Shown here piece by piece: positions 2,156-17,141 of a DNA stretch of 64,000 nt. Origin of the DNA: an uncultured Verrucomicrobiota bacterium (GTDB lineage Bacteria; Verrucomicrobiota; Kiritimatiellia; JAAZAB01). A program made the position numbers and the translations under genes. The stretch covers positions 18,820 to 82,819 of the forward strand of contig CAYXEK010000004.1 in assembly GCA_964463985.1 (NCBI GenBank). Reading direction: 5' to 3'. Positions within the stretch are counted from its first letter, which is position 1. Every line of letters starts with the position of its first letter. The notes under the pieces were generated by a model, which saw nothing but the letters and a program-made list of their open reading frames with translations, did not search any database and was not told where the DNA came from.

Positions 2156-3079
2156 ATGCTGGCAAGCACTAAATACGCCAATCAAGTCCGTCCGGAGCGC
2201 ACGCTGCAGTCGGTTTTGCGCGGTTTTCAAGTGCTGGAAATCGTGGCGGCCACCCATGGCGGCGCGGCGCTCAAGGATATTGCCGCACAGATGGGATTGA
2301 AGCCGCCCACCGCGCATATCCTTCTTAACACGCTGGTGGCGGGTGGATATCTGGCGCGCCGCCCGGGCGACATGCGCTACCGGCTGGGAGAAGCCTCGTT
2401 CCGGCTCACTGACCGCTACCTGGAAAACACACTGCGCCAGGGCGCCGAACAAGCCGTGCGCGCGGTGGCCGCCCAATTGCCCAAAGCCACGGTGATCTTT
2501 GTCGAACCCCGCGATTGCGATGTTTCCGTGTTGTTCCGGATGTCGCCCGACCGCCCCAGCATCATCCAGATGCCGCGCGAACGCCGCATGGCGCCATACC
2601 AGAGCGCCAGTGCGTTGGCCTGTCTGGCATTCCTGTCCCCTGAAGAACAACTGGCATTCCGGCAGCGCCATGATTTTCTGGAAGACGGCAAATCCGCTTG
2701 GGGTAGCGAAAAAAAACTAGAAGCATTTTTGAATAAATCACGCCGGCTGGGCTATGTTCTGCTGAATTTCTCCCGCAGCGGAGTGCGCGCCATGGCCGCG
2801 CCGGTTTTCAACCGCCGCGGCCAGTTGGCCGCCGCGCTGGGCGCCAGCATGCCCCCGGTTGATTTTAGCGCCATGGAAAAGCAAATTATTGAAATCGTAA
2901 CGGCCGCGGCCCGCAAGTTATCAGCGCCGGATTTTAACATACAATCCGCCGGGGTTTCCCCGAACCGAATTCAACACACAGACACGGAAGGGAAAGGACA
3001 TGACAGCATCGCAAAAATACGGAACGATCATCACCGGCATCATGAACAACATCCTGGAGCAGGAAGCCGGCCATATTGA
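2156..3079 (+). CDS. IclR family transcriptional regulator
   Basis: N-terminal HTH (QSVLRGFQVLE...LKDIAAQMGLKPPTAHILLNTL...GY...YRLG) and C-terminal effector domain (RRLGY...GVRAMAAPVFNRRGQLAAAL). An ~50-aa tail overlaps the next gene by 80 nt. Confidence 0.9.
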   Translation: MLASTKYANQVRPERTLQSVLRGFQVLEIVAATHGGAALKDIAAQMGLKPPTAHILLNTLVAGGYLARRPGDMRYRLGEASFRLTDRYLENTLRQGAEQAVRAVAAQLPKATVIFVEPRDCDVSVLFRMSPDRPSIIQMPRERRMAPYQSASALACLAFLSPEEQLAFRQRHDFLEDGKSAWGSEKKLEAFLNKSRRLGYVLLNFSRSGVRAMAAPVFNRRGQLAAALGASMPPVDFSAMEKQIIEIVTAAARKLSAPDFNIQSAGVSPNRIQHTDTEGKGHDSIAKIRNDHHRHHEQHPGAGSRPY

Positions 3080-3755
3080 CAAGGCCGCCGAACTGCTCGC
3101 CGGTTGCTATGCCGAGGACCGCCTGATCCACGTCTTCGGCGCGGGCGGCCACTCGGCCATCGGCGCGATGGAAATCTTCTGGCGCGCCGGCGGCCTGACC
3201 AAAATCAACGCCATGTTCCCGGTCGGCACAAACATCATCACCGCCAATCCAACCACCGCCAAAGTCACCGGACTGGCCCCGTTCATTCTGAACTATTACG
3301 AGGTCAAACCGGGCGATCCGCTGATTCTGGTCAACTTTTACGGACTGAACCCGGTCGCTGTGGACGTGGCGATCGCGGCGCACGAGCGCGGTGTCAAACT
3401 CGTCACCGTCAATTCGCATAAATTCGCCGCCACAGTGCCGGAGGACTTTAAATGGCGCCACCCATCCAAAAAAAACATTCATGACTTCGCCGACGTGGCG
3501 GTGGATAATCATGTCCCCTATCCTGACGCCGTTTTGCAGGTCCCGGGCGTGCCGGAACCGATCACACCCACGGCAACCATCGCTACCTGCTTTGCCTTGA
3601 ATTGCATCATGACCGAAACCATCGCCAAACTGCCGGGAAAGAACGTCAAGCCGGAAATATGGATCAGCAACAACATCCCCGGCTGCGACGAACACAATCA
3701 ACCCCTGGTGGAAAAATACCGGCATCGTATCCACCACCTGTATCCGGTGGTGTAA
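3000..3755 (+). CDS. SIS (sugar isomerase) domain protein, UPF0309-like
   Basis: IHVFGAGGHS...EIFWRAGGL, GDPLIL...GLN, DVAVDNHVPYPDA and TATIA motifs; GGA-rich RBS upstream. Confidence 0.85.
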   Translation: MTASQKYGTIITGIMNNILEQEAGHIDKAAELLAGCYAEDRLIHVFGAGGHSAIGAMEIFWRAGGLTKINAMFPVGTNIITANPTTAKVTGLAPFILNYYEVKPGDPLILVNFYGLNPVAVDVAIAAHERGVKLVTVNSHKFAATVPEDFKWRHPSKKNIHDFADVAVDNHVPYPDAVLQVPGVPEPITPTATIATCFALNCIMTETIAKLPGKNVKPEIWISNNIPGCDEHNQPLVEKYRHRIHHLYPVV

Positions 3756-3761
3756 CAAAAA

Positions 3762-3845
3762 GGGACAAAGGGGCAAAGGCACATAGTCACAAAGTCAGAT
3801 ATTAGCGGAGTTCCGGAATTCCGGCTTTGACACTTTGATCCTTTG
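3762..3845. repeat. imperfect palindrome built of 8-bp periodic units (xxCAAAGx / CTTTGxxx)
   Basis: Left arm gacaaagg ggcaaagg cacatagt cacaaagt; right arm ctttgaca ctttgatc ctttgagc. Confidence 0.65.
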
Positions 3846-3883
3846 AGCCTGTGCCACTTTCATCGGTAAATTGGAAAGGGGAA

Positions 3884-5044
3884 ATGAAAACCACAGAATT
3901 ACATGTGCCGGACCGTTACGCGATTGCCATCACATCCATCGCCCGGATCAAACGTAAAATTTATCTCGGTTTGACCGCCGGCGCCCGCTCGCTCGCCGTC
4001 TACGATATTGACCGGGAAGAAATCGGCATGGAGCCGGATATTTTCCCCTGGGTGGCCGGCCGGGGTTACTGCGCAAAAATTCATAATGCCATGGGCGCCT
4101 TGGATGACGGGACGTTGCTGCTGGGCGAAGGCAACCATTTTACCTGGGACGGCATCCCGGTCACGGTCAATTATTTCAACACCGAACTCCCGGAAAGCAT
4201 GCTCGGCCGCAAACGCGCGCAGGGTTTTCCCGACGTTAAATACACCGATTTCTGCCGTGAAAACCTGGACGGCTGGGATCGCACCGCAACCGATCCGGGC
4301 GGCAAAATCCTGCGTTACGATCCCGCCACCCAAAAGGCGGAATTGGTCGGCGAACTGCCAGAATTCCTGTATGCCCAATCCATGGTGGTGGACGCCAAAC
4401 GGCTGCGCGCTTTCGGGCATACCCTGCCGGACAATAATTTCTTTTACGTGGATGTCAGCCAAAAAACCATCCATAATTTCGGCCATATATCCGATTTCGC
4501 CCATCACAACATGGTGATCACCCCGGCCGGCGTCTGTTACGGCGGCTGGATTGACCGGGCCAACGGCTCTTTAAAACTCCTGAAATTCGACCCGGAAAAA
4601 CAACGGCTGGAATATCTGGACAAGGTGATCCTGCGCGACCCGGGCGCCAAGGTGGCCGGCAATCAGGGCATTGACTCCTGGATCGTCACCCGTGCGGGAG
4701 AAATTTTCATGGGTGCGGTCGCCAATTCCCTGCTGTTCCGATTCGATCCGGATACGGAAGAGTTTGAACTGATCGCCCAACTGGCCAAGGGCGGCCGGAT
4801 AACCTCGATGGACGAGGACGAAAACGGAATCATCTGGATTGGCGCGGATTATCCGCACATGCGCCTGATCCGGTTCGATCCGAAGTCCGGCGGCAAAAAC
4901 CGGGTCATAGATTGCGGCCGGGTGAACGACTCCTACCCCCGCTGCTATTTCCATGCCTCATGTTATTTCGAAGGCAAATTGTACCTGGGCGAAACCGACG
5001 GCTTTTCACCCTCATTGCACATTGTTGATTTGAATAAAATGTAG
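3884..5044 (+). CDS. hypothetical beta-propeller-like protein
   Basis: 386 aa with recurring blade-like motifs (LYLG, FDPE/YDP, GIIWIG, GKLYLG). No signal peptide evident. Confidence 0.7.
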   Translation: MKTTELHVPDRYAIAITSIARIKRKIYLGLTAGARSLAVYDIDREEIGMEPDIFPWVAGRGYCAKIHNAMGALDDGTLLLGEGNHFTWDGIPVTVNYFNTELPESMLGRKRAQGFPDVKYTDFCRENLDGWDRTATDPGGKILRYDPATQKAELVGELPEFLYAQSMVVDAKRLRAFGHTLPDNNFFYVDVSQKTIHNFGHISDFAHHNMVITPAGVCYGGWIDRANGSLKLLKFDPEKQRLEYLDKVILRDPGAKVAGNQGIDSWIVTRAGEIFMGAVANSLLFRFDPDTEEFELIAQLAKGGRITSMDEDENGIIWIGADYPHMRLIRFDPKSGGKNRVIDCGRVNDSYPRCYFHASCYFEGKLYLGETDGFSPSLHIVDLNKM

Positions 5045-5062
5045 TTCGATTAAAAACAATTC

Positions 5063-5150
5063 TCTCACAAAGCCACAAAGACACCAAGATGAACGAAAAC
5101 GAAATAGGGACAATTATAGTTTGCCTCCGTGCCTTTGTGGCTTTGTGAGA
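5063..5150. repeat. perfect 18-bp inverted repeat with 8-bp periodic arms
   Basis: TCTCACAAAGCCACAAAG (5063-5080) and CTTTGTGGCTTTGTGAGA (5133-5150). Confidence 0.9.
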
Positions 5151-5190
5151 AATTTTTCCGAAATTCCGACAACAGGTGAGTGGCAAACAT

Positions 5191-7995
5191 ATGCAACCAG
5201 AGGCAAGTTGTTTTGACCAGCCGGCGGCGCCTGATGCGGGAACACCAATCTCGTTTCGACCACTGGGCGCACCGGCCGATCCGGATCCGGCGCCGGTATA
5301 TTGGATGGCGCGCCGTTTTTTCACCCTGCCGGCAAAGCCGGTCAACGCACCCCTCGCAATCGCGGCTGACCGGCATTACGAAGTCTTCCTGAATCAGACG
5401 CAAGTGGCAACCTGCCGCAATTATTTCAGCGGCGACCGGTATCTCTGGCTCCAACGCCATGCCGGTAAGGATTTGCCGGTCGCCGCAATCGCCGGCAAAA
5501 ATGTCCTTGAAATCCTGGTTCGGTCAGACCCGCAGGCAAACAAGAACCATGTCCAATTCCATCCCATGCTCTGGTGCCATCTGCGTCTGGAAACGCCGGC
5601 CGGAACGATTGACGTGGCCACCGATAGCGATTGGGAAGTCGCCGCTATTTCCGGCTGGCGAACTTTACGCGCCTGCCAACTGACCATCGCTTACGAAACC
5701 TTGACCATCCAGCCGGCCGGCCGGTGCGGTGTGCGGGGCATTCCCAGCTTCCTGGAATACGGCCCCCCGGCGCTGCTGGACCCTCGCCAACTGCCGCCGA
5801 TTTACGAATGGACCGACACGCCGAAACGCGTTGACATTCACCATCCTGCAGCCGTAACCGCTGCGGGCACATGGACCGGTTCTTCGGAAAGCCTCTGTTT
5901 CAACCTGCATGATTTGTTCGGCGCCGGAGACGCCGGCGGCGCCGGCGTTGTTTTGCGTGCGGAGTTCAACGCGCCACGCGAACAGGATATCTGGATCGCG
6001 GCTTCGGGATTCTGCGACTGTGCCGTTGAGCTTAACAACTTTCAAATCTGCGCGCGCAACAACCTGCCGGGACCGGATTTAATGCGCCAGAAGAATTTTT
6101 TGGCGCCGCCCTGCCGCTGCCGCGTCCGGCGGGGGGCCAATGAAATTGCCGTGCGGTTCGGCAACGATCACCGGCGGTTCCTGGCCTGGCAGGCGCGCCT
6201 GGCGCAGCAACCGCTGGCGGCGGGGTTGTGGTTTCGGCTCCAAATTCAGGGGATTTCTTCGGCGGATTGGCGCTGGCTTAACAATGCCGGATCCGCCGTA
6301 AAACCGGTTCCCTGCCAGGGCAACCTGGAAGACATCCTGGGCGCCAAGGCCGCCAGTATGCCGCTGCCCGCCCTGACCGTCGGAAGCACTCCGGCCAAGT
6401 TCACCCTCCGCGGCTTGCGCGCCGGGGAAAAACCATTTGTCCTGCTCGACTTCAACGGCATCAAAAAAGGGCAACTTTCTTTCACCATCCAGGCGGACGC
6501 GCCCGGGCGGATTTATCTCGCCTACGGGTTCCTCGCCGAACAGGGTTCGGTGGATTGCGGACGCAACGGCAAAAAGGCTGTGGATATCATCAATGTCCCC
6601 GCCGGCTATTCGGAATACGAGGCGTTTGAAGACCGTACTTTCGTTTATCTGGACATGGCGTTCGAAAATTTCACGGGGTCGCTGGCCATCAACGACATTG
6701 CCCTCGCCGAACGCGTTTTTCTCGATGAGCAACGGACGCAATTCCAGTCACCCGACTCAACGCTGCCGGCTGTCTGGCGGGCATCGCTCCGCACCGCTCA
6801 AATCTGCTGCGATGAAATTTACATGGATAATGCCGAGCGAGAGCATTGCCAATGGCTCTGCAGCGCGCCGCCCAATATCGCCGCCGGCTATTACGCCTTC
6901 GGCGGTGAAATGCCCAAGGCCGCCAAAGTCCTGCTCGAATTCGCCCGGCACCAGCGTCCCAACGGAGAAATCCAGGGACATGCCCCGGGCAGGTGGGGCA
7001 ACCGGCCAATGTACCAGTGCCACATGGGCCTGTACGTCCGGGCAGTCTGGCGCGACTACCACTACCGGGGCGACATGAACCTGCTGCGGCGCCTGATGCC
7101 GCATCTGCACAAACTGCTGGCCTTCTGGAAAACGCACCGCAATCCGCGTGGATTGCTGGAAAACATTGAGACGGTCTGGGTTGATTGGGGCCAGCATCTT
7201 TATTCCTACGCGCCCGGAGGCATTCCCGGCGCCCAAGGCGCCGGCGGCGTATTGACGGCCATGAACGCCTATTACCTCGGGGCATTGCGCATGTGCGCCG
7301 AACTGGCCCGCGCCCTCGGCGAAGACCGTACGGCGGAACGCTACGACGCCATGGCGGATGAAACGGCTGCCGCCATGGCGCGCCTGTTGTTTGACCGCGA
7401 TAAAAAACTTTTCCGCGACGGACTCAACAACCCGGCGGCGGAAAAGAATTATTCCCAGGCGGCCAATGCCGCCGCCGCGCTTTACGGCGCGCTGCCGCCG
7501 GCGGAAGGCGCGGCTGCCCTGCGCGCCGCCTTTGAAACCGCGCAGCCATGGACGGAAATCATTCCCGCCAGCCCGCACTTCGGGCTGCTGGCGGGCGAAG
7601 CCTTGTTTGAAGCTGGCTTGGACGCCCTGGCGTACGCCTGGATCGGCCGGCATGCGCATATGTTGCAAGCTCCCGCCGGCACGATCTGGGAAACCTGGTC
7701 GCCGCATGTCGCGCATTGCCAGGGCATCGGCTCGGCCATCGCCTATCACCTGGCGCGTTACCATGCCGGAATTTATCCCGCGCGGCCGGGTTTCGCCGCC
7801 ATCGGCATCCGCCCGCAGGCCTGCGGCCAGTCCTGGCTGCGGATGCGGATGCATACGCCATGGGGCGCGGTCGGCGCGGCCTGGCAGCACACGGCCCGCG
7901 GCTTCGATTATGAATTAACACTGCCGCCGGCGCTCCAGGGCCGGCCGCTGGAGATCGCTCCCGCGGTACATTTAACCATGTCGTCTTCCCATTAA
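5191..7995 (+). CDS. GH78 alpha-L-rhamnosidase-like glycoside hydrolase
   Basis: N-terminal AADRHYEVFLN domain, LDFNG..KG, MDNAEREHCQW (DxPxRER-like), YSQAANAAA, PASPHF, TIWETW, HCQG and GFAAIGIRP...TPWG C-terminus. ATG at 5191. Confidence 0.8.
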   Translation: MQPEASCFDQPAAPDAGTPISFRPLGAPADPDPAPVYWMARRFFTLPAKPVNAPLAIAADRHYEVFLNQTQVATCRNYFSGDRYLWLQRHAGKDLPVAAIAGKNVLEILVRSDPQANKNHVQFHPMLWCHLRLETPAGTIDVATDSDWEVAAISGWRTLRACQLTIAYETLTIQPAGRCGVRGIPSFLEYGPPALLDPRQLPPIYEWTDTPKRVDIHHPAAVTAAGTWTGSSESLCFNLHDLFGAGDAGGAGVVLRAEFNAPREQDIWIAASGFCDCAVELNNFQICARNNLPGPDLMRQKNFLAPPCRCRVRRGANEIAVRFGNDHRRFLAWQARLAQQPLAAGLWFRLQIQGISSADWRWLNNAGSAVKPVPCQGNLEDILGAKAASMPLPALTVGSTPAKFTLRGLRAGEKPFVLLDFNGIKKGQLSFTIQADAPGRIYLAYGFLAEQGSVDCGRNGKKAVDIINVPAGYSEYEAFEDRTFVYLDMAFENFTGSLAINDIALAERVFLDEQRTQFQSPDSTLPAVWRASLRTAQICCDEIYMDNAEREHCQWLCSAPPNIAAGYYAFGGEMPKAAKVLLEFARHQRPNGEIQGHAPGRWGNRPMYQCHMGLYVRAVWRDYHYRGDMNLLRRLMPHLHKLLAFWKTHRNPRGLLENIETVWVDWGQHLYSYAPGGIPGAQGAGGVLTAMNAYYLGALRMCAELARALGEDRTAERYDAMADETAAAMARLLFDRDKKLFRDGLNNPAAEKNYSQAANAAAALYGALPPAEGAAALRAAFETAQPWTEIIPASPHFGLLAGEALFEAGLDALAYAWIGRHAHMLQAPAGTIWETWSPHVAHCQGIGSAIAYHLARYHAGIYPARPGFAAIGIRPQACGQSWLRMRMHTPWGAVGAAWQHTARGFDYELTLPPALQGRPLEIAPAVHLTMSSSH

Positions 7996-8015: not shown

Positions 8016-9971
8016 ATGCAAGCCAGATTATTCGCCGCGCCCCAGGTGATGAACATGGGGTTCCATTACACCCTGCAATTCAGCCGCCGCACCCGCATCA
8101 ACGTCGTCGGCCTGGTAGATCAGAGCACGGATGAATGGAAAGAATGGTATTTGAAAACCCACCAGCCGCCGGCATTGCGCGAAATGGCCGATGCCGGTTA
8201 CACCCTGATCGAAATCCATTTCCTGTACGGGTTCGGCCTGGAAGGCGAGCGCGAGGAATGGGAACGCGCGCGCGATATGGCGCGCCATGCCCACGACGCC
8301 GGCCTCAAAGTGCAGGGGTATTTCCAGTTTTTCTCGGTGCAGCAGGAACTTTTTTTCCTGGAAAATCCATGGGCGAAAGACTGCATCCAGGTCAACGCCG
8401 AGGGTAAATCTATCCGCTTCCGTTACGACCGTCCGGCCCTATGCTTTACCAACGAACGCGTGCGCCGGTATTACCTGGACGGAGTTGAACTGGGCTTGAA
8501 AACCTGCGATCTGGACGGCATCCGGCTGGACAACGATTATTTCAAGGGCTGTTACTGCCCGAAATGCCAGGATGCGTTCCGCGCATGGCTGCGGGAAAAA
8601 TTCCCCGCGCCGGACGACGTCCGCCGGGTGTTCGGCCTGCCGACGACTGGCGGCATGGAACTGGCGCCGATCCCGATGCCGCGCGATCCGCTCTGGCACG
8701 CCACCGTGCTCTTCCGCCAGGAACAGCGCCAGCAGATGATGCGCCAGATATCCGAAAAAATCCGCGCCATCAAGCCGGACGCCATCCTCGGCGGCAACCC
8801 CGGCATCAACCGGCGCTTTGACGATGCTTACCGCATCCACATTTACACGCCCGACCTGGCCGAGACACATCACCTGGTCTGCGCGGAGAACATCCGCTAC
8901 CCCGCCCGCACCGGGGACACTTTCCGCCACCAGGCGCTGCTGTACAAGCATGGCCAGGCCGGCAACTTCGCCGTCTTTGCCAGCCATCACCTGCACAATG
9001 CGCAAGGCCGAATCCGCTGGCCGGAAACGCTGGAGGAATGCGCACTCTCGCTGTGCGAGGCGCTGGCCTTCGGCGGCCACCCCGTCTGCACCACCTGGGG
9101 TATCCGCATGGATGCCGGCGGCAAAATGCTCTATCAACGCCCGCTGTTCCGCCGGGCGCTGGACCCGGTTACAGCATTTCTGAAAGAACACGGCAATATT
9201 TACCGCGGCGCAAAGTGCAACGCGGCCGTCGGTGTTTACCAGAACCGGGAAAGCCTTTGCGGCGATTCGCCCAACTCGTGGCTTTCATTGCAAGGCGCCT
9301 TACAGGTGCTGCTCCAGCGCCAGATTCCGTTCCGCTTGGCGGATCGCGACCTGGACGAGCTGCTGGAAGGCATAAAACTGCTGATCGTGCCGGACATGCA
9401 GCTTATCAGCGATGCGCAAATGGACCGCCTGCATGAATTTGCCGGCGGCGGCGGCAAACTGCTCTGGACCGGTCAAGCCGGCCGGTTTGACGACTGGCGT
9501 TTGAAACGCGATGCCGGCCGGCTGGAACTCTGGCTCGGCCATGCCAACATCGCGCGGCTGCCGGAAGCGCCGGAAAAAATCTCGCCGGCCTCCGAGCATG
9601 AAAACGACCGGCAATTTGCAGGGGATGCGGGCAACGCCTGGTACATGAACCTGCCCATGCCCGCCGGCGCGGAAGATTTTGCCGCGGCCGTCCGCCAACT
9701 GGCCCCGGCGCCCGCGGTCACTGTCAGCGGATCGCCCTTTGTCGCCGTGGATACATTTGTCAATGACCAAGGCGAAAATTTTGCCCACCTGCTGAATTAC
9801 GACAATGCCCGGCCGTGCGATCTGACGATTGAGATTGCCGGCGCCGCCCGCGCGGAATGCCTGATGCCGGCTGGTCTCGGGACGCAAAGCACCCCGGAAA
9901 TACGTTCGACAAACCAAAACACAACCATCGGGCTGAAAGGATTGCACACCTACTGCGTTATTAAATATTGA
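8016..9971 (+). CDS. GH42-like / GHL6-like TIM-barrel protein with class-I GATase-like (trimerization) domain
   Basis: CFTNERVRRYY...LDGIRLDNDY..GCYCPKCQDAFRAWL, VCAEN, and C-terminal LLIVPDMQLISD...GGKLLWTG. Confidence 0.65.
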   Translation: MQARLFAAPQVMNMGFHYTLQFSRRTRINVVGLVDQSTDEWKEWYLKTHQPPALREMADAGYTLIEIHFLYGFGLEGEREEWERARDMARHAHDAGLKVQGYFQFFSVQQELFFLENPWAKDCIQVNAEGKSIRFRYDRPALCFTNERVRRYYLDGVELGLKTCDLDGIRLDNDYFKGCYCPKCQDAFRAWLREKFPAPDDVRRVFGLPTTGGMELAPIPMPRDPLWHATVLFRQEQRQQMMRQISEKIRAIKPDAILGGNPGINRRFDDAYRIHIYTPDLAETHHLVCAENIRYPARTGDTFRHQALLYKHGQAGNFAVFASHHLHNAQGRIRWPETLEECALSLCEALAFGGHPVCTTWGIRMDAGGKMLYQRPLFRRALDPVTAFLKEHGNIYRGAKCNAAVGVYQNRESLCGDSPNSWLSLQGALQVLLQRQIPFRLADRDLDELLEGIKLLIVPDMQLISDAQMDRLHEFAGGGGKLLWTGQAGRFDDWRLKRDAGRLELWLGHANIARLPEAPEKISPASEHENDRQFAGDAGNAWYMNLPMPAGAEDFAAAVRQLAPAPAVTVSGSPFVAVDTFVNDQGENFAHLLNYDNARPCDLTIEIAGAARAECLMPAGLGTQSTPEIRSTNQNTTIGLKGLHTYCVIKY

Positions 9972-10145
9972 TGGCGCCGCATCCGTTCACATTCACGGCG
10001 CATGTGAAATGATGCGTGCTTTTAGTATCAACCGGATGGTCTTTGACAGCCGCGCCCGCGTGGCGCGGACTTTCCGGAACAGAGGTTACCCCCCCCCGCT
10101 GCCATAAAAACAACAGCGGAGAACCAAGCACAGGAGCAAGAATAG

Positions 10146-11216
10146 ATGCAAGCGACGCAACATCAAACATCCAATACCAACGCGCAATCCCGCGCGGACA
10201 CCACCCGCGAGATCAAGAAACTCGCCAAATCGCTCGGCGCCGACCTGGTCGGCATCGCCTCGATGGACCGCTTTGACGGCGCGCCGATCCAGATGGACCC
10301 CCGCTACATCATGCCGGAGGCCAAGTCCTGCATCGTGGTCGGGTTCCGCGTCCTGCGCGGCTCGCTGCGCGGCATTGAAGAGGGCACATTCTTCAGCAAT
10401 TATTCCTCCATGGGCTATGGCGGCATAACTTATATCTTTATGCCGATCACCGTCATGAACCTCGCGCGCCACATTGAAGACATGGGGTACGAGGCTTTCC
10501 CGATGGGACATCAAAGCGACTGGCGCGCGATTGACAATGAAGGCCGGATGCGCGCCGGCTTCAGCAAGCCGGTGGCCCCCGGCAAGCCGGCGCCGGACAT
10601 CATGGTGCACCTGCGCCTGGCGGCCTTCGCCGCCGGCCTGGGAGAAATCGGCTGGAGCAAAATGCTGATCACGCCGGAATTCGGTCCGGCCGTGCGCGTC
10701 GGCCTGGTGTTGACCGAGTTGGAACTCGATCCCGACCCGCTTTACAGCGGCCCCAGGCTCTGCAACAAATGCATGGCCTGCGTCCGCGCCTGCCCGGGAA
10801 AGGCCATCAGCGCCGACAAAAGCATCAAGGTGACAGTAGCCGGCCAGGCGCTGGAATGGGCGGAAATAGACATGGACGCCTGCGATGTTGCCTTCCGCGG
10901 CGCCGATGAAATCAAAAATGGGCCAGGCAAAGGCTATTACATTGAAGGATTTGACAGTTTCCGTCCGAATCATGTCTCGCCGTTTTATAACGCGCCGCCC
11001 AAACTTTACAATGCCGGCAAGGCAATCGGCGGCGCCGACGGTTGCATCAGGGCCTGTCTGGCCAGCCTGGAAGCGCGCGACCTGTTGACGCATAAATTCA
11101 AACAGAAGTTCCGCCGGCGCAAACCGTGGACCGTGGACTGGTCGCATTATGAAGAAGAAATCGCCCATGCGCCATCGGGCACCATCGGCATCAACACCCG
11201 CCTGGACACGGATTAA
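10146..11216 (+). CDS. QueG / reductive-dehalogenase-like cobalamin-binding Fe-S protein
   Basis: KLAKSLGADLVGIA...P.YIMPEAKSCIV; RLAAFAAGLGEIGWSKMLITPEFGPAVR..LVLT; CNKCMACVRACP; later DAC and GCIRAC. No Tat leader. Confidence 0.8.
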   Translation: MQATQHQTSNTNAQSRADTTREIKKLAKSLGADLVGIASMDRFDGAPIQMDPRYIMPEAKSCIVVGFRVLRGSLRGIEEGTFFSNYSSMGYGGITYIFMPITVMNLARHIEDMGYEAFPMGHQSDWRAIDNEGRMRAGFSKPVAPGKPAPDIMVHLRLAAFAAGLGEIGWSKMLITPEFGPAVRVGLVLTELELDPDPLYSGPRLCNKCMACVRACPGKAISADKSIKVTVAGQALEWAEIDMDACDVAFRGADEIKNGPGKGYYIEGFDSFRPNHVSPFYNAPPKLYNAGKAIGGADGCIRACLASLEARDLLTHKFKQKFRRRKPWTVDWSHYEEEIAHAPSGTIGINTRLDTD

Positions 11217-11325
11217 ATGGAGAAAGGCACATAAGAAGAAAGGAACAAAGAGGCAGAGCCGGAAAATTCTCCGCGAAAGGACACAAGGATCGCAAAGAAA
11301 AAGAATTTCCGGCAGAACCAAATGT

Positions 11326-11529
11326 TTCTCACAAAGACACCAAGACACAAAGGGCGAACGGATTTACAGATGCTGAAGGAAAACATGTCGCTATGCGGCA
11401 GTTCCGTTAAACGGAACCCCGTTCTTGGAAACAGCACAAAGCAAAAACCGTTTTGCGATTTGCCCTGTTTCCAAGAACGGTCATGTTTTCCTGCTGGTTC
11501 TTTCTTGGTGGCTTTGTGACTTTGCGGGA
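11326..11529. repeat. third 8-bp periodic imperfect palindrome in the same gene cluster
   Basis: TTCTCACAAAGACACCAAGACACAAAG (11326-11352) versus CTTGGTGGCTTTGTGACTTTGCGGGAA (about 11504-11530). It shares TCTCACAAAG with the element at 5063. Confidence 0.7.
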
Positions 11530-11705
11530 AAATATTCCGGATTCCGAAAGTTTGCCCATTGCGCGGGCACGCGGCTTTGCCGGATTCGTGTGATTCACGG
11601 TTAGAAAATCCGGGGCAGCTTTCCCTTTTTAATATGGTTTTTGCAATCTTTTGTGGATAATTTATTCCGACTTGGGTTGCGGTAAGCGCCCGTATTGGTA
11701 AAATA

Positions 11706-13721
11706 ATGAATACAAAACTCAAAAAACATTTCGGATCGAAACCAATCGTATGGGTGGCCGCCTGGGGCATATCCAAACTGCGCAAGCGCGGCGGACAGTT
11801 TGCCGGTTCGATCAACGGCGCGGCCGTCTGGTATGATGACTGGTATGACCGGGTCATGTCGAAGGAAACCGCCGTCAAGCTGGCGGAACTGGGAGTCAAC
11901 TTGATCATCCTGCCGTTTTCCGTGGGCGGCAGCGCGCGCATGGAACAAGCGGAACGCGACGATTTCGAACGCATGACCCGTACGCTGCACAAGTGCGGCA
12001 TAATCTCGCTGCCTTACCTGCAATACCAGAACATACTGCAGGAAGATTTCACCTTCAAAGACACGGTCTGGGGGGTCAGACTCGACGGCAGCCGCAAGCA
12101 ATTCGCTTACTGGCGGCGCACGGTCTGCCAATCCTCCCCGGCATTCCGCGAATATTTCAAGGGATTGATATCCGACGCCCTGCGGCGCGGCGCCGACGGC
12201 ATCTGGATTGACAATACCCACCGTGTCCCCTGCCGGTGCGACCTGTGCATCCGGCGCTTCAAACAATGGCTATATGCTAACCGGCGCGAATTGCTGGCCG
12301 AACTCCGCCTTGAGAATTTTGACCGGATTGAAATGCCGCCATTCGCCGGCGGCGCCGATCCTATCACCCAGGCCCTGCTGGACTTTAATTGCAGGGCGAA
12401 TCTGGACATTTTGTCCGAATTTAAAAATCACATGCTGTCAATCAAGCCGGACGCCCTGTTCGCATCCAATCCCGGCATCGGCCGCGGCAGCAGCAATTAC
12501 GACCGCGGCATTGATCTGCGGCCGTTGCTGGAACTGCACGACCTGATGTATCTGGAAAACAAATTTTTTCCAAGTGTTGCCGACGGCCAGACCACCGGTA
12601 ATTTCCACGGATTCATCAGTTGCGAGGCTGCCGGCTCAATGGGCATTCCCGGCGCATGGAAACGGCATGATTTTGACGATACGGCCTCAAAAACCGCCAC
12701 CGGCATGCCGGAAACCGAGCCGGAAATCCGGCGGGTGATCTTTGAAGCCGCCGCCTGCGGCGGCGCGCCGGGCATGCTCTGGGCCATCCGCACCCGGCCG
12801 GAACACATGTGCGACAAGCCCGCCGACCTGCTGACCATGTATTTCGAGCATCCGCTGATTTATTCCGGCATGAAAAAGGCCCTGGACTTTGTCCGCTCCC
12901 TGCCGGTATTCGGCGATTCCCGCAACATCGCCAACATCGCCGTGCTGCATCACCGCGCCAGCCTGGCCTTTGACCCGCAAAACGCCTGGCCGGCCATGCA
13001 TACCGCGGAAGAGTTTTTACACAACGCCGGATTGCCTTACAACGTTTTGTATTCCGAAGATTGCGCCGCCCAAGCTGGCGGGTACAAAGCGATCATCCTT
13101 GCCGGCGTCAGCGCGATGAGCCAGCAGGACGCGGATGCCCTGAAAGGTTACGTTGAACGCGGCGGACGGCTGCTGGTCCTGGGCGATTGCGGACTTTACG
13201 ACGAACGCCGGCATGAGCGTACCGAATTCATCCTGCGGGATGTTTTGGGCGCCAGCCGCTTCCGGCGCGTCCAGGAATTTATTTTCAACCGCTACGGCGC
13301 GGGCATCTGCGCGACCCTGCCCATGGCTGGCGTATCTGATAAAATGCTCAACAACATCATGCAAGCCGAACCCAGGAATTATCTGCCTGCCTGGCATATC
13401 CGCCGTTCCGAGGTTATGCATGCGCTCGATGCGTTGCTGGGCGGCGACCGGCAAATCCGGATGACTGACATGGCGAATGTCGCGGTTACTCTGCGCCGGA
13501 CGGAGTCCGGCGCAACCGCCGCGCATTTCGTGGCATACGCTCCTTGCCCCGACGCGCAGGCATTGACCATCCAAATCCATTGCAGTTTGGCGCACGCGAA
13601 ACAAGCCGTTTGGCATACGCCGGGAGCCGGGGCGCAGCCGGCGGAACATGGCGCCGGGGCGGCGGGTTATAACTCATACCGCCTGCCGGGCTTGATTGAT
13701 TACGGCGTGTTGATCATATAG
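11706..13721 (+). CDS. second GH42-like / GHL6-like protein (architecture paralog of 8016-9971)
   Basis: CQSSPAFREY...ADGIWIDNTH..PCRCDLCIRRFKQWL, MYLEN, and AIILAGVSAMS...YVERGGRLLVLG. Confidence 0.65.
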   Translation: MNTKLKKHFGSKPIVWVAAWGISKLRKRGGQFAGSINGAAVWYDDWYDRVMSKETAVKLAELGVNLIILPFSVGGSARMEQAERDDFERMTRTLHKCGIISLPYLQYQNILQEDFTFKDTVWGVRLDGSRKQFAYWRRTVCQSSPAFREYFKGLISDALRRGADGIWIDNTHRVPCRCDLCIRRFKQWLYANRRELLAELRLENFDRIEMPPFAGGADPITQALLDFNCRANLDILSEFKNHMLSIKPDALFASNPGIGRGSSNYDRGIDLRPLLELHDLMYLENKFFPSVADGQTTGNFHGFISCEAAGSMGIPGAWKRHDFDDTASKTATGMPETEPEIRRVIFEAAACGGAPGMLWAIRTRPEHMCDKPADLLTMYFEHPLIYSGMKKALDFVRSLPVFGDSRNIANIAVLHHRASLAFDPQNAWPAMHTAEEFLHNAGLPYNVLYSEDCAAQAGGYKAIILAGVSAMSQQDADALKGYVERGGRLLVLGDCGLYDERRHERTEFILRDVLGASRFRRVQEFIFNRYGAGICATLPMAGVSDKMLNNIMQAEPRNYLPAWHIRRSEVMHALDALLGGDRQIRMTDMANVAVTLRRTESGATAAHFVAYAPCPDAQALTIQIHCSLAHAKQAVWHTPGAGAQPAEHGAGAAGYNSYRLPGLIDYGVLII

Positions 13722-13838: not shown

Positions 13839-14744
13839 ATGAAGACCGCGGCGCCATTGATCAGCATCGGACTGGCTGCAATCATCCTGCTGGCGGGATG
13901 CGTCCGCCCAACGGATGTCATTGATGTCTCGGCCTACGACTACCGGGACACCAGGAACCTGGTGCGCATGGTGGCCGACGCCGCCCGCCTGCTTGAAGGC
14001 GAGGGCTTGCCCGCCCTCGATAGTTTACGGGAGCGCTGCTCCCCTTCCGGCGAATATTATCTTTACGTTTACGATGCGGAAGATATCTGCCTCTACCATG
14101 CGGGCATGCCGGAACTGGTCAATCAATGCCTGGCGGACATCAAGGATATTGACGGGAAATCCATTTCACGCCTGATCCGGGAAGCCCTGAACAACCCCGA
14201 TAATCCGCACGGCTGGGTACATTACACCTGGTGGGAACCGGGAAAATTTTACCCGGTGCCGAAGTCCTCCTGCCACTTCCGGATTCGCCTGCCCGACGGA
14301 CGTAAAATCTACGTCGGCGGAGGATTGAACCATCCGCACGAGGAACGCGAATTCATCCGCATTTCGGTTGACAGCGCTGCCAGGCTGATCCAGGCCCGGG
14401 GCGCGGACGCCCTGCCGGCCATCGCCGATCCGCTGGCCTCCTACAATTTCCGCGACGTGCGGGTGTTCGCGTTCCGCGAAGACGGGCGCATGCTGATTTC
14501 TCCGGTGCTGGGCGACAACCGGATCGGGCTGGATTTGCGCCGGTGCGTGGATGCCGCCGGCAACCGCCCCTTCGACCGCGCGCTGAGTTTGCTGGAAACG
14601 CAGGCCTCCGTCTGGCAGGCATTCATTGACTACAGCCGGGACGAACGCCAACCCGTGAAGAAAACTCTGTATATACGGCGCACCGTCTTGAATAATGAGC
14701 CGGTTTATCTGGGCGCCATAACGGATCTGCCCCATCCGCCTTGA
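13839..14744 (+). CDS. lipoprotein consisting of two tandem sCache_2-like domains, with no TM or signalling output
   Basis: Lipobox LAGC. Domain 1: YYLYVYD...LYH...D.DGK...GWVHYTW.EPG...PK. Domain 2: VFAFREDG...D.AGN...KK.LY. The protein ends right after domain 2. Confidence 0.75.
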   Translation: MKTAAPLISIGLAAIILLAGCVRPTDVIDVSAYDYRDTRNLVRMVADAARLLEGEGLPALDSLRERCSPSGEYYLYVYDAEDICLYHAGMPELVNQCLADIKDIDGKSISRLIREALNNPDNPHGWVHYTWWEPGKFYPVPKSSCHFRIRLPDGRKIYVGGGLNHPHEEREFIRISVDSAARLIQARGADALPAIADPLASYNFRDVRVFAFREDGRMLISPVLGDNRIGLDLRRCVDAAGNRPFDRALSLLETQASVWQAFIDYSRDERQPVKKTLYIRRTVLNNEPVYLGAITDLPHPP

Positions 14745-14831
14745 TGCCCATCGGGCGGTGTCCGTCAAAAACATTGAATCGCCAGGTTGTGATGAACGCA
14801 AGCTGAGCAAACAGGGCGCAGGCACAGGAAT

Positions 14832-16202
14832 ATGCAAACCAAATACGAATACGGCGTCAATGAAGTGCCGCCTTTCCCGCATCTGATTGCTTTATCATTG
14901 CAGCATGTGATGCTGATGTTTGTTTCGCTTTCCCTGCCCGTGATTTTCGCCGCGCAGATCAACGCCTCGCTGGAGGTTACCGCCGCGCTGGTGGCGTTTT
15001 CCATGCTGGCGGGCGGCATCGGCTCAATTATGCAAGCCGTTAAATGGCCGTTTTTGGGATCGGGCTACCTCTGTCCCAATGTTTGCGGACCGTCCTATTT
15101 CAGCCTGTCATTATCAGCAGCCTGGACCGGCGGCATGCCGCTCATGCGCGGGATGACCATCCTGGCCGGGCTGGTGGAAGTGGTCATGGCGCCCATCGTC
15201 CAGAAATTAAAACATGTCTTTCCCAACTACATCGTCGGCCTGGTGGTGGCTTTGGTGGGCGTAAGCGTGATCACGCCGTCGGTAACTTCGCTGTTCGGCC
15301 TGGCATACCGCGGCGATGCGCTGGTGGTGGCCGACGGGCTGGTGGGATTCGCCACGCTGGCGGTGATGGTGCTTTGCAACGTCTGGGGAAAGGGCCCGGT
15401 GAAAGTGTACAGCCTGCTGATCGGCATGCTGGCCGGCTGGTTGGCGGCCTTGTGCGTCTCCCCGGAAAGCCGCTTGGCCCTGCATGCCTTGCACGGCACG
15501 GCCTGGGCGGCGCTGCCAAGCATGCCGTGGAAGCTCTGGGACCTGGCGTTCGACCCGCAACTGGCGCTGCCGTTCGTGGTCATCGGGATCAGCGGCTCGC
15601 TGAAGTCGTTCGGCAACCTGCTGGCCGCCCAACACATTTCGGAGCCGGAGTTAAAACGCCCGAATTTCAAGCCGCTGCGCAACGGCCTGATGGCGGACGG
15701 GCTTTCGACCATGCTGGCCGGCGCGCTCGGCGGAATGGCGGTGGACACATCCTCCAGCAATGTCGGCCTGGCGGCCTCCACCAAGGTGTTGAGCCGCTGG
15801 CTGAGCATGGCCGCCGGTGTAATCTTCATCCTGCTGGCCTTTTCACCGCGCCTGACAATATTTTTTTCGCTGATGCCGCAGCCGGTGCTGGGCGCATCCA
15901 TTATCTTCGCCGCCTGCTTCATGATCGTCATCGGCCTGCAACAGATGTTTGAAGAGCCATGGGAAACGCGCCGGACATTCGTGGTAGGCATATCGCTGTT
16001 TCTCGGACTGAGCACGGCTTTCCAACCGGGCTTGTACGCCCGGGCGCCTCACATCATCCAGGCCTTTTTCACTGATCCGCTGCCCACGGCCACGATCCTG
16101 GCCGTGGCGCTGCACCAACTGGTAAACCTGGACCGCACCGGCGCCGGTTTGGCGCGGCGCGCCGGATCGTTGCTCCGCCGCCAGCAAGATAAACGCCGAT
16201 AA
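14832..16202 (+). CDS. NCS2 (UraA/XanQ-type) permease with atypical binding site
   Basis: SLQHV in TM1, GLMADG in TM9, signature-like TSSSNVGLAASTK, P.PVLGA; highly hydrophobic, 456 aa. Confidence 0.85.
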   Translation: MQTKYEYGVNEVPPFPHLIALSLQHVMLMFVSLSLPVIFAAQINASLEVTAALVAFSMLAGGIGSIMQAVKWPFLGSGYLCPNVCGPSYFSLSLSAAWTGGMPLMRGMTILAGLVEVVMAPIVQKLKHVFPNYIVGLVVALVGVSVITPSVTSLFGLAYRGDALVVADGLVGFATLAVMVLCNVWGKGPVKVYSLLIGMLAGWLAALCVSPESRLALHALHGTAWAALPSMPWKLWDLAFDPQLALPFVVIGISGSLKSFGNLLAAQHISEPELKRPNFKPLRNGLMADGLSTMLAGALGGMAVDTSSSNVGLAASTKVLSRWLSMAAGVIFILLAFSPRLTIFFSLMPQPVLGASIIFAACFMIVIGLQQMFEEPWETRRTFVVGISLFLGLSTAFQPGLYARAPHIIQAFFTDPLPTATILAVALHQLVNLDRTGAGLARRAGSLLRRQQDKRR

Positions 16203-16207
16203 GAAGC

Positions 16208-17077
16208 ATGAAAAAACCGCTCTATCCGCGCGCCGACGCCATGCCCGCCTGCGCCGGCTTCATCATTGATTGCCATATCCATCCCGCGCTCAATGCCCGT
16301 ACCGACTTCAACTGGTTTGGCCCGGTCGGCGGTTTTGCCCGGCAGGTCGAGGACCTGCGCCGCGCCGGCATTTCCCGGGCCTGCGGCGCGCCCGTCGCGG
16401 CGGGCGCCCCGGAAACATTTTCCGCCATCAGGCAATTGAACGACCAGGCGCTGCGGCTGCGCGACCGGTTTCCGGACTTCTACCTGCCGGGCATCCAGGT
16501 CCACCCGCATTTCCCCGCGGAATCATGCCGGGAAATCGAACGCTGCTGCGGCCGGGAAAGCGTGCGGTGGATCGGCGAACTGGTCGGCTATATGATGGGT
16601 TACGGCGACGATTACGCCTCGGATGCCGCTTTGACGGTCATGCGCGCCGCATCGGAGCACGGCGCCGTGGTCAACCTGCACTGCCATAGCCTGGAGCCCC
16701 TTGACCGCCTCTGCGCGGCCCTGCCTGACCTGAAAATCGTATTGGCCCATCCGGGCGGCGGCAAGCAGGACGTGCTGGGGCGGCTGGACAAAGTGGCCCG
16801 TTATCCGAACCTGCACCTGGACATCTCCGGGTCGGGCATTGACCGGCTGGGCATCCTCCGCCATGCAATGGACATTGCCGGCAAGGACAAGTTGCTATTT
16901 GGGACGGATTACCCCGTCAACAACCCGGCCGTTTACGTTCAAGGCGCGCTTTATGAACGCCTGACCGGCGCCGAGCGCGCGGCGTTGTTTGCCGGAAATT
17001 TTCAGCGGCTGACGGATGCGGTTGCGCCGGGGGGATGCGCAAAAAAAATGCGCCATGGTGCCGGAGGAGGGAGTTGA
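16208..17077 (+). CDS. amidohydrolase family protein (Amidohydro_2)
   Basis: IIDCHIH, IGE, NLH, VLAHPGG, NLHLDIS, LLFGTDYP and GNF.RL motifs. Confidence 0.85.
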   Translation: MKKPLYPRADAMPACAGFIIDCHIHPALNARTDFNWFGPVGGFARQVEDLRRAGISRACGAPVAAGAPETFSAIRQLNDQALRLRDRFPDFYLPGIQVHPHFPAESCREIERCCGRESVRWIGELVGYMMGYGDDYASDAALTVMRAASEHGAVVNLHCHSLEPLDRLCAALPDLKIVLAHPGGGKQDVLGRLDKVARYPNLHLDISGSGIDRLGILRHAMDIAGKDKLLFGTDYPVNNPAVYVQGALYERLTGAERAALFAGNFQRLTDAVAPGGCAKKMRHGAGGGS

Positions 17078-17141
17078 ACCCTCATGGTGTTGCCACCGCT
17101 GGATTTTGAGTCCAGTGCGTCTGCCATTTCGCCACCCCGGC
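17056..17141 (-). tRNA. tRNA-Leu (anticodon CAA)
   Basis: The reverse complement reads GCCGGGG TGGCGAAATGGCAGACGCA CTGGA CTCAAAA TCCAG, a long variable arm, GAGGG TTCAACT CCCTC, CTCCGGC ACCA. The acceptor stem pairs and CCA is encoded. Confidence 0.97.

Follow-up and report, generated by a model that had tools for sequence, protein, structure and literature searches.

The stretch of DNA analysed here, hereafter the window, comprises 64 kb of contig CAYXEK010000004.1 from an uncultured Verrucomicrobiota bacterium; its population is one of anaerobic digesters or bioreactors, and its closest named relatives are metagenome-assembled genomes (MAGs) of Kiritimatiellia. At positions 10146 to 11216 it carries a gene for a protein of the superfamily that holds the reductive dehalogenases (RdhA) and epoxyqueuosine reductase (QueG), which we call the RdhA-like protein. 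The gene is a lineage-specific variant of a widespread clade. The explanation we favour, with a probability of roughly 0.6, is that its product is a soluble, cytoplasmic member of a strongly conserved clade of class-III corrinoid/iron-sulfur (Fe-S) proteins, that its proximal Cys295 has been replaced by Gly, and that it carries out reductive chemistry; we draw this from homology and fold, from a cysteine pattern seen in this copy alone, from purifying selection and from gene context. The features of the gene are as follows.

10146..11216, + strand: RdhA/QueG-superfamily protein of predicted class-III corrinoid/Fe-S fold, 356 amino acids (aa), cytoplasmic (open reading frame (ORF), hidden Markov models (HMMs), PDB matches, AlphaFold2 model, Foldseek)
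10431..10433, + strand: Tyr96, family-invariant, candidate counterpart of the RdhA active-site Tyr
10614..10715, + strand: conserved core RLAAFAAGLGEIGWSKMLITPEFGPAVRVGLVLT, residues 157-190, the best-scoring stretch against PceA, NpRdhA and QueG
10761..10796, + strand: first Fe-S motif CNKCMACVRACP, C206-x2-C209-x2-C212-x3-C216-P, all four Cys invariant in 113/113 sequences
10881..10883, + strand: lone Cys246 (DMDACDV), putative proximal-cluster ligand, invariant in 113/113 sequences and across the broader clade
11028..11057, + strand: cluster loop G295-G-A-D298-G-C300-I301-R-A-C304 (GGADGCIRAC); relatives read C-G-A-x-G-C-T-R-A-C

The RdhA-like protein and its superfamily

A ribosome-binding site, AGGAG, stands 9 nucleotides (nt) 5' of the ATG, and the gene upstream is followed by a hairpin and then a T-run. 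The cysteines of the 356-aa protein are residues 62, 206, 209, 212, 216, 246, 300 and 304, the first of which falls outside the cluster domain and varies among relatives, 58 of 113 having Met there. The cluster domain itself holds seven, as an earlier note on this DNA had counted: CxxCxxCxxxCP, the lone Cys246 and GGADGCIRAC are all present in the ORF. Cys246 is separated by 53 residues from Cys300 and by 48 from position 295, and the chain ends about 50 residues past the last Cys. Its N-terminus (MQATQHQTSNTNAQSRADTTREIKK...) has no twin-arginine (Tat) motif and no hydrophobic stretch, and the flanks of the gene contain no rdhB-like ORF for a small membrane protein, in line with the cytoplasmic location that the same note had given it.

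Profile searches place the protein in the superfamily and outside its named families. Pfam gave only weak, sub-threshold Fer4/ferredoxin matches, and neither DUF1730 (PF08331) nor a HEAT domain. The NCBIfam model for reductive dehalogenase (RDH), TIGR02486, scores 61.4 bits over residues 159-227 and does not reach its subfamily cut-off of 160.35, and the QueG model, TIGR00276, scores 41.7 bits over residues 159-227 only and does not reach its equivalog cut-off of 200. The best PDB sequence matches are PceA (8q4h, 4uqu), QueG (5d6s, 5d08) and NpRdhA (4ras). HMM and PDB sequence matches to RdhA, QueG and NpRdhA span residues 157-230, with the core AGLGEIG...ITPEFGP...CxxCxxCxxxCP, and residues 157-190 appear from these alignments to correspond to the cofactor-binding region of RdhA and QueG. 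An AlphaFold2 model made with 113 relatives has a pLDDT of 85.9 and a pTM of 0.87. Foldseek ranks PceA and NpRdhA first (E ~1e-10), followed by QueG (1e-8) and CblC/MMACHC (1e-3), with a probability of 1.0 for the first three and 0.99 for CblC; these matches therefore point to the fold of the class-III cobalamin enzymes, in which a predicted nitroreductase-like B12-binding core is followed by a bacterial-ferredoxin-like domain. HMM searches, PDB sequence matches and Foldseek thus agree on the QueG/RdhA-like superfamily membership that had been read from the sequence earlier.

Within the superfamily, the protein stands apart from both characterised groups. In a tree of 52 sequences, with RdhAs from Trichlorobacter and Sulfurospirillum plasmids and with only two QueGs, those of E. 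coli (L089) and Latilactobacillus (L. curvatus), it falls in a tight clade (support 98) that is nested in a 37-row clade of uncharacterised proteins (98), and long branches part these clades from those of QueG (98) and RdhA (99), all with Shimodaira-Hasegawa-like approximate likelihood-ratio (SH-aLRT) support of at least 98. The 37-row clade adjoins a clade of tandem-duplicated forms of about 770 aa. There are many of these tandem forms, and within their own clade the N- and C-terminal halves stand apart in the tree; one, a 768-aa protein of two RdhA/QueG-like halves at 3396-5702 (- strand) of the Victivallales locus L001, lies beside an IclR gene and a single-domain member of the family. With an HMM built on the family, two RdhAs reach 58.5 and 56.5 bits, as against 37.3 and 21.4 bits for two QueGs.

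Arg184 (nt 10695-10697), in the motif GPxxR, is invariant in 113/113 sequences and aligns, in significant segments, with the PceA Arg ('GPNVR') and with NpRdhA Lys488, the residue altered in the K488Q structure 6zy0; QueG reads GSYxY where the family has GPxxR. Only in weak collinear HMM segments of 4-6 bits does Tyr96 fall opposite Tyr246 of PceA 4uqu and the equivalent Tyr in a Sulfurospirillum RdhA. The family's second Fe-S motif is CxxxxCxxxC, which in the window protein reads GxxxxCxxxC and has no Pro; it does not match the CxxCxxxCP of RdhA. The protein is on these grounds neither QueG nor a canonical RdhA, and belongs to a separate clade; the non-QueG reading of the earlier note is upheld by the tree, by 41.7 bits against 200, and by GPxxR in place of GSYxY.

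Set beside the RdhAs of PceA type (PceA of Sulfurospirillum multivorans, 4uqu/4ur3; PceA of the RDH complex, 8q4h) and NpRdhA (4ras/6zxx), the protein is alike in its predicted fold, in an AGLGE-G...ITPEFGPxxR core followed by CxxCxxCxxxCP, in an Arg at the position of the PceA Arg and NpRdhA Lys488, and in a second Fe-S motif split by an insert; NpRdhA is also cytoplasmic and has no RdhB. It differs from them in its length of only 356 aa and in having no Tat signal, vestigial second B12 domain or reductase fusion. Its second motif follows the family pattern C-x48-C-x4-C-x3-C with no trailing Pro, and the family is far more conserved than the RdhAs, is paired with U32-like and GH42-like proteins, and has no known link to halogenated substrates. 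With QueG (B. subtilis 5d08/5t8y, S. thermophilus 5d6s, E. coli b4166) the protein shares superfamily, fold, solubility and monomer size, as well as the eight-Cys logic with one lone Cys between the motifs (Cys214 in QueG, Cys246 here). It differs in the absence of the N-terminal DUF1730 and of the C-terminal HEAT-like tRNA-binding domain, and in the regulated catabolic loci of its family, whereas QueG has a housekeeping context.

The family is large and confined to anaerobes among the genomes scanned. A word-indexed search returned more than 3189 relatives, the best 120 of which have identities of 60-83% and belong to Kiritimatiellia, Lentisphaerae/Victivallales, Planctomycetota, Spirochaetes and a large number of Clostridia; in the databases relatives go by the names 'ferredoxin', '4Fe-4S binding protein' and 'hypothetical', and some by the mistaken name 'epoxyqueuosine reductase'. 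An exhaustive search of 50%-identity representatives gave 155 clusters at E <=1e-30 and 879 at <=1e-10, and a scan of species-representative genomes found a relative in at least 402, all of them anaerobes of gut, rumen, digester, sediment or groundwater. In the 113-sequence alignment, where the window protein is 60-83% identical to the other 112 clade members, about 90 residues outside the ferredoxin domain are invariant, including H122, D125, W126, R127, D151, R157, E167, K172 and R184. The family-invariant polar residues H122, S124, D125, W126, R127, D151, H155, R157, E167 and K172 are absent from sister subfamilies and are candidate substrate determinants. Our literature search found no paper on this clade, nor on a U32 protein paired with an RdhA/QueG-like protein; a survey of cold-seep RdhAs (PMC12219181) demanded the second motif CxxCxxxCP, which this family is without.

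Position 295 in the cluster loop

The 113-sequence alignment and 80 species-representative genomes served as comparison sets for position 295. Cys occupies this position in 112 of the 113 aligned sequences and Gly in the window alone; all 80 genomes have Cys295, and none has Asp298. At position 298 the other aligned sequences read Gly, Arg, Lys, Met, Ala or Ser, Asp being again confined to the window. C206, C209, C212, C216, C246, C300 and C304 are invariant throughout the alignment. The motif of the family is thus one of eight cysteines, CxxCxxCxxxCP...C...CxxxxCxxxC, from which the window protein departs at 295. We accordingly reject seven cysteines as the design of the family, given Cys295 in 112/113 relatives and 80/80 genomes, and the earlier note's view of the seven as a feature of the enzyme type has to be given up, Cys295Gly being private to the window copy.

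The window codon is GGC (Gly), where relatives have the Cys codon TGC. A sequencing or assembly error is ruled out at this codon, since contigs from three independent studies (X1, X3 and X4) cover 11028-11030 with zero differences. Measured against three concordant outgroups, eight substitutions are unique to the window protein, and three of them, C295G, G298D and T301I, lie within a seven-residue loop.

The sister subfamilies put this substitution in a wider context. At position 295 they have Glu (P0125, P0126 and P0131), Asp (P0151) or Gly (P0128), and the cysteines that are invariant in the broader clade are exactly the seven present in the window. Position 295 therefore holds an evolutionarily labile putative ligand, and the window protein has re-acquired a state that other subfamilies tolerate. 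What the residue might do can be read from QueG: in its structure, Cys198, 214, 240 and 243 hold the cobalamin-proximal cluster and Cys188, 191, 194 and 247 the distal one, an arrangement conserved in RDHs, and all Cys-to-Ala changes but one abolished in vivo activity (PMC5175355). By motif position, C216, C246, residue 295 and C300 would be the ligands of the proximal cluster and C206, C209, C212 and C304 those of the distal cluster, with Cys246 the likely counterpart of Cys214 in B. subtilis QueG; the residue lost at 295 would, by the same match, be one of those that bind the cluster supplying electrons to the corrinoid.

A precedent may exist among the dehalogenases, for some of which the earlier note had given a second cluster of [3Fe-4S] type. 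CprA of Desulfitobacterium dehalogenans is a reductive dehalogenase reported to have one [4Fe-4S] and one [3Fe-4S] cluster, and reportedly it too is a corrinoid/Fe-S reductase whose second Fe-S motif is one Cys short. CprA differs in being a Tat-exported respiratory enzyme, whereas the shortfall in the window is a private substitution within an eight-Cys family.

The copy in the window nonetheless bears the marks of continued constraint. The rate of nonsynonymous relative to synonymous substitution (dN/dS) of the RdhA-like gene is 0.16-0.20 against three orthologues, similar to the 0.11-0.28 of the neighbouring genes, and Cys295Gly is the sole departure of the window copy from the columns that are invariant in all other members. 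A contig from a sludge metatranscriptome is identical to nt 10440-10632, which is weak evidence of transcription. Because sister subfamilies naturally have Glu, Asp or Gly at 295, the copy is probably still active, and we predict a working enzyme with a three-Cys proximal site.

Recurrent partner genes

Neighbourhoods were collected from 8 contigs and 80 genome loci, and the counts given here refer to the 45 loci in which the RdhA-like gene is flanked on either side by 3 kb or more, and to neighbours within 3.5 kb of it. A Cys-rich U32-like protein of about 341 aa is found in 31/45 loci, a GH42-like protein of about 672 aa in 15/45, one or the other in 40/45, and an IclR or AraC regulator in 30/45. 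The U32-like assignment is weak (Pfam PF01136 at a sub-threshold E of 3.5e-4; its profile has a single PDB match, to the U32 protein 5d88 with E 0.69). The protein, which the earlier note had not foreseen as a partner, has eight invariant cysteines, and BLAST shows no similarity between it and either the GH42-like protein or the 344-aa URO-D-like protein described below. In loci L002, L003, L006 and L007, to whose RdhA-like proteins that of the window is 60-66% identical, the U32-like gene lies directly 3' of the RdhA-like gene; in the L006 MAG a trio of IclR, RdhA-like and U32-like genes stands alone amid housekeeping genes, and in Lentisphaeria and Victivallales all three genes, RdhA-like, U32-like and GH42-like, occur together. 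In the loci of Clostridia, 33 of the 142 closest other ORFs encode AraC regulators and the rest ABC permeases, esterases and GH28, GH39, GH20 and SASA enzymes; no third conserved metabolic partner was found in these loci, only the AraC regulators recurring.

The window has the Kiritimatiellia layout, in which IclR, Kelch, GH78-like, 651-aa GH42-like, RdhA-like and 671-aa GH42-like genes all run in one direction:

2156..3079, + strand: IclR-family regulator at the head of the co-directional row (Pfam HTH_IclR, IclR_C)
3851-5044, co-directional: Kelch protein
5176-7995, co-directional: GH78-like protein
8016..9971, + strand: divergent second paralogue of GH42-like type, 651 aa, immediately upstream of the RdhA-like gene (weak Pfam GH42 and GH42M matches)
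11706..13721, + strand: GH42-like three-domain protein, 671 aa (pLDDT 92.6; Foldseek GH42 and GH164, TMq 0.6-0.69)

An IclR gene also stands beside the RdhA-like gene in L001, L003 and L006, the window IclR being 31% identical to the L006 copy. The window shares this type of regulator with the loci that carry the RdhA-like and U32-like cassette; it differs from them in that its partner is the 671-aa GH42-like protein and in the loss of one proximal-cluster Cys.

Genes for the GH42-like protein recur next to the RdhA-like gene among Kiritimatiellia, Lentisphaeria, Victivallales and Planctomycetota. Orthologues of the 671-aa protein adjoin the RdhA-like gene in L001, L005 and L008, and its family numbers 69 members, all from bacteria of the Planctomycetes-Verrucomicrobia-Chlamydiae (PVC) group and mostly encoded beside an RdhA-like gene. 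The 651-aa paralogue is 24% identical to it and is syntenic in L008-L011. The 671-aa protein has an invariant Asp169-Asn170 where GH42 enzymes have Asn-Glu, a CxCxxC site (176-181) and an invariant Glu284-Asn285; it may represent an unclassified glycosidase family or a non-hydrolytic relative. The earlier note had the neighbouring glycosidases supply the substrate of the RdhA-like protein. The setting is as it described, for the gene does sit among glycosidase-like genes, with that at 11706-13721 a recurrent partner, while the supply of substrate is guilt by association. Taken together, extreme conservation and dedicated regulators suggest one common substrate for the family, tied to the breakdown of pectin-like or other plant or host glycans.

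A further gene appears at some of the closest loci. A 344-aa member of the URO-D family (PF01208, E 1.8e-11), whose relatives include corrinoid-dependent methyltransferases, adjoins the RdhA-like gene in closely related Kiritimatiellia and Lentisphaerae (6980-8014 in L008/L009, about 6980-8008 in L010 and 3599-4468 in L012), and the window has a 175-bp gap in its place. Its place in L009 and L010 is immediately upstream of the RdhA-like gene, and it is absent from both the window and L011. There is no second RdhA-like paralogue in the window, and queG, tgt and queA are absent from its ORFs between 17 and 48 kb (ORFs past 48 kb are unannotated).

Proposed reaction and alternatives

The sequence suggests that the RdhA-like protein binds a cobamide, and from this an electron path, a chemistry and a substrate class can be proposed. 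A low-potential donor such as ferredoxin would reduce the distal [4Fe-4S] cluster (Cys206, 209, 212 and 304), from which the electron would pass to the proximal cluster (Cys216, 246 and 300, with Cys295 in relatives) and on to a base-off cobamide. The reduced cobalt would then attack a small, polar, probably glycan-derived substrate, and reductive elimination of the leaving group would break a bond of the C-O or C-halogen type; in this step Arg184 and perhaps Tyr96 would deal with the leaving group as the Arg/Lys-Tyr pair does in RdhAs. In the window lineage, the change of Cys295 to Gly, alongside Gly298Asp and Thr301Ile, would leave three cysteines at the proximal site, and this site would be expected to carry either a [3Fe-4S] cluster or one of [4Fe-4S] type whose fourth ligand comes from Asp298 or solvent.

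A bolder version of the same idea, which we offer tentatively and at something short of even odds, is that the clade represents a third functional branch of class-III cobamide/Fe-S enzymes with position 295 as its tuning point, and that the window records a recent, working switch from Cys to Gly. Such a branch would perform an undescribed reductive step on a glycan-derived metabolite, in concert with a U32-like and/or GH42-like partner, in hundreds of anaerobes, and the second ligand of its proximal cluster would be tuned by lineage as Cys, Glu, Asp or Gly, with Asp298 possibly compensating in the window.

Several observations weigh against the explanation we favour. The TM-scores of the predicted fold to solved RdhAs are moderate, at 0.43-0.47; the alignment of Tyr96 reaches only the few bits given above, and this residue is not conserved in sister subfamilies. 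The clustering of the three private changes in the loop is only marginal (p ~0.05, by simulation of changes anywhere in the protein). The terminal branch of the window protein is about 2.5 times as long as that of its sister, although relative-rate tests for acceleration of the window copy were mostly not significant (p 0.03-0.58). The U32-like gene is missing from the 64-kb window (tblastn with four U32-like queries, best E 0.07), the URO-D-like gene of two close relatives was not found there, and the window copy could be orphaned of both partners. Finally, the window has no cobalamin riboswitch in an RNA scan and no cobamide gene among the ORFs from 17 to 48 kb.

This last absence also speaks for an unlikely alternative, in which the protein is a cobamide-free Fe-S protein that has kept only the RdhA/QueG scaffold and assists the U32-like or GH42-like partner as an electron-transfer or accessory subunit. 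U32-family hydroxylases require an electron sink, and the U32-like partner brings eight invariant cysteines of its own. At the same time, the stretch most conserved between the protein and RdhA/QueG is the cofactor-binding core, the roughly 90 residues that are invariant beyond the ferredoxin domain argue for a catalytic pocket and not a simple wire, and the window copy is under purifying selection even though no U32-like gene lies within the 64 kb.

We think it quite improbable that the protein is a catabolic, cytoplasmic RdhA, a minimal catalytic module that removes halogens from natural organohalides in the manner of NpRdhA or BhbA. Its top sequence and fold matches are indeed RdhAs, the active-site Arg/Lys position is conserved, and IclR/MarR-linked cytosolic rdhA-like genes have been described (PMC12219181). 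Yet the protein reaches only 61.4 bits of the 160 that TIGR02486 demands and falls in a separate clade, and its family is 60-83% identical across phyla, whereas RdhAs are highly diversified. The fixed pairing with U32-like or GH42-like and sugar-polymer genes has no counterpart in dehalogenase loci, and we know of no use of organohalides by gut and rumen Clostridia.

Decay deserves about as little credence: here the gene would be an inactive or decaying remnant that has lost a proximal ligand and lacks the U32-like and URO-D-like neighbours. Cys295Gly has no parallel in the 113 aligned proteins and 80 genomes, the window copy has a longer terminal branch, the window contains neither a U32-like nor a URO-D-like gene, whereas L009 and L010 have the latter, and all but one of the Cys-to-Ala changes in QueG put an end to activity in vivo (PMC5175355). 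Against this, the reading frame is intact with a dN/dS of 0.16-0.20, every other family-invariant residue is retained, the same allele is fixed in three studies, part of the gene has an exact metatranscriptome match, and Glu, Asp or Gly at 295 is tolerated in sister subfamilies; L011, too, is without the URO-D-like gene, yet it has Cys295. That the protein is the organism's QueG is hardly credible and we reject it, for although some database records call its relatives 'epoxyqueuosine reductase' and it is weakly similar to QueG structures, it falls far below the equivalog cut-off, has no DUF1730 or HEAT domain, lies outside the QueG clade with GPxxR in place of GSYxY, and belongs to a family under IclR/AraC-type regulation in sugar-polymer loci.

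To our knowledge, reductive dehalogenation and epoxyqueuosine reduction are the only established reactions that use B12 as a reductant together with two Fe-S clusters. If the explanation we favour is true, a third conserved, substrate-regulated clade, present in at least 402 species of anaerobes that degrade polysaccharides, would point to an as yet unknown and probably common step in anaerobic carbohydrate or plant-metabolite breakdown, and to a new demand for cobamides in gut and digester communities. In this setting the window protein and its 83%-identical eight-Cys orthologue would form a natural variant pair for the control of cobalt reduction by the proximal cluster; the three-Cys site, that orthologue and the sister subfamilies with Glu, Asp or Gly make the role of the ligand testable by spectroscopy. 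Were the protein cobamide-free, or the copy inactive, its interest would be that of an ordinary uncharacterised Fe-S protein. New in this analysis are the GH42-like partner, the assignment of the ligands and the lability of position 295.

The non-coding sequence around the gene shows some variation and repetition. A run of nine C at 10089-10097, about 50 nt 5' of the start codon, is eight long in the X3 and X4 contigs, which come from two other studies and also carry an 8-nt insertion, GAAGAAAG, after 11234; these differences could reflect variation in the length of a promoter or leader, or a homopolymer artefact. In the 490-bp spacer past the gene (11217-11705), CCGTTCTTGGAAACAG and CTGTTTCCAAGAACGG, about 30 nt apart, form a perfect inverted repeat of 16 bp. 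Parts of 11364-11546 occur on many other contigs of digester metagenomes at several-fold higher depth, and a sludge metatranscriptome contig spans 11447-11597. The spacer element, which has no second copy within the window, may represent a dispersed repeat, or else a small RNA or leader. The RNA scan of the window returned only a tRNA and a borderline match to the Rfam small RNA M23, at 7452-7500 (- strand), of 41.4 bits against a gathering threshold of 41.2; this match falls inside the GH78-like coding region and is probably due to chance. On the 3' side of the 671-aa GH42-like gene, 13839-17077 holds genes for a Cache-domain protein, a permease of the xanthine/uracil family and a PF04909 amidohydrolase, the last of which is syntenic in L008-L011, and a minus-strand tRNA gene occupies 17059-17141.

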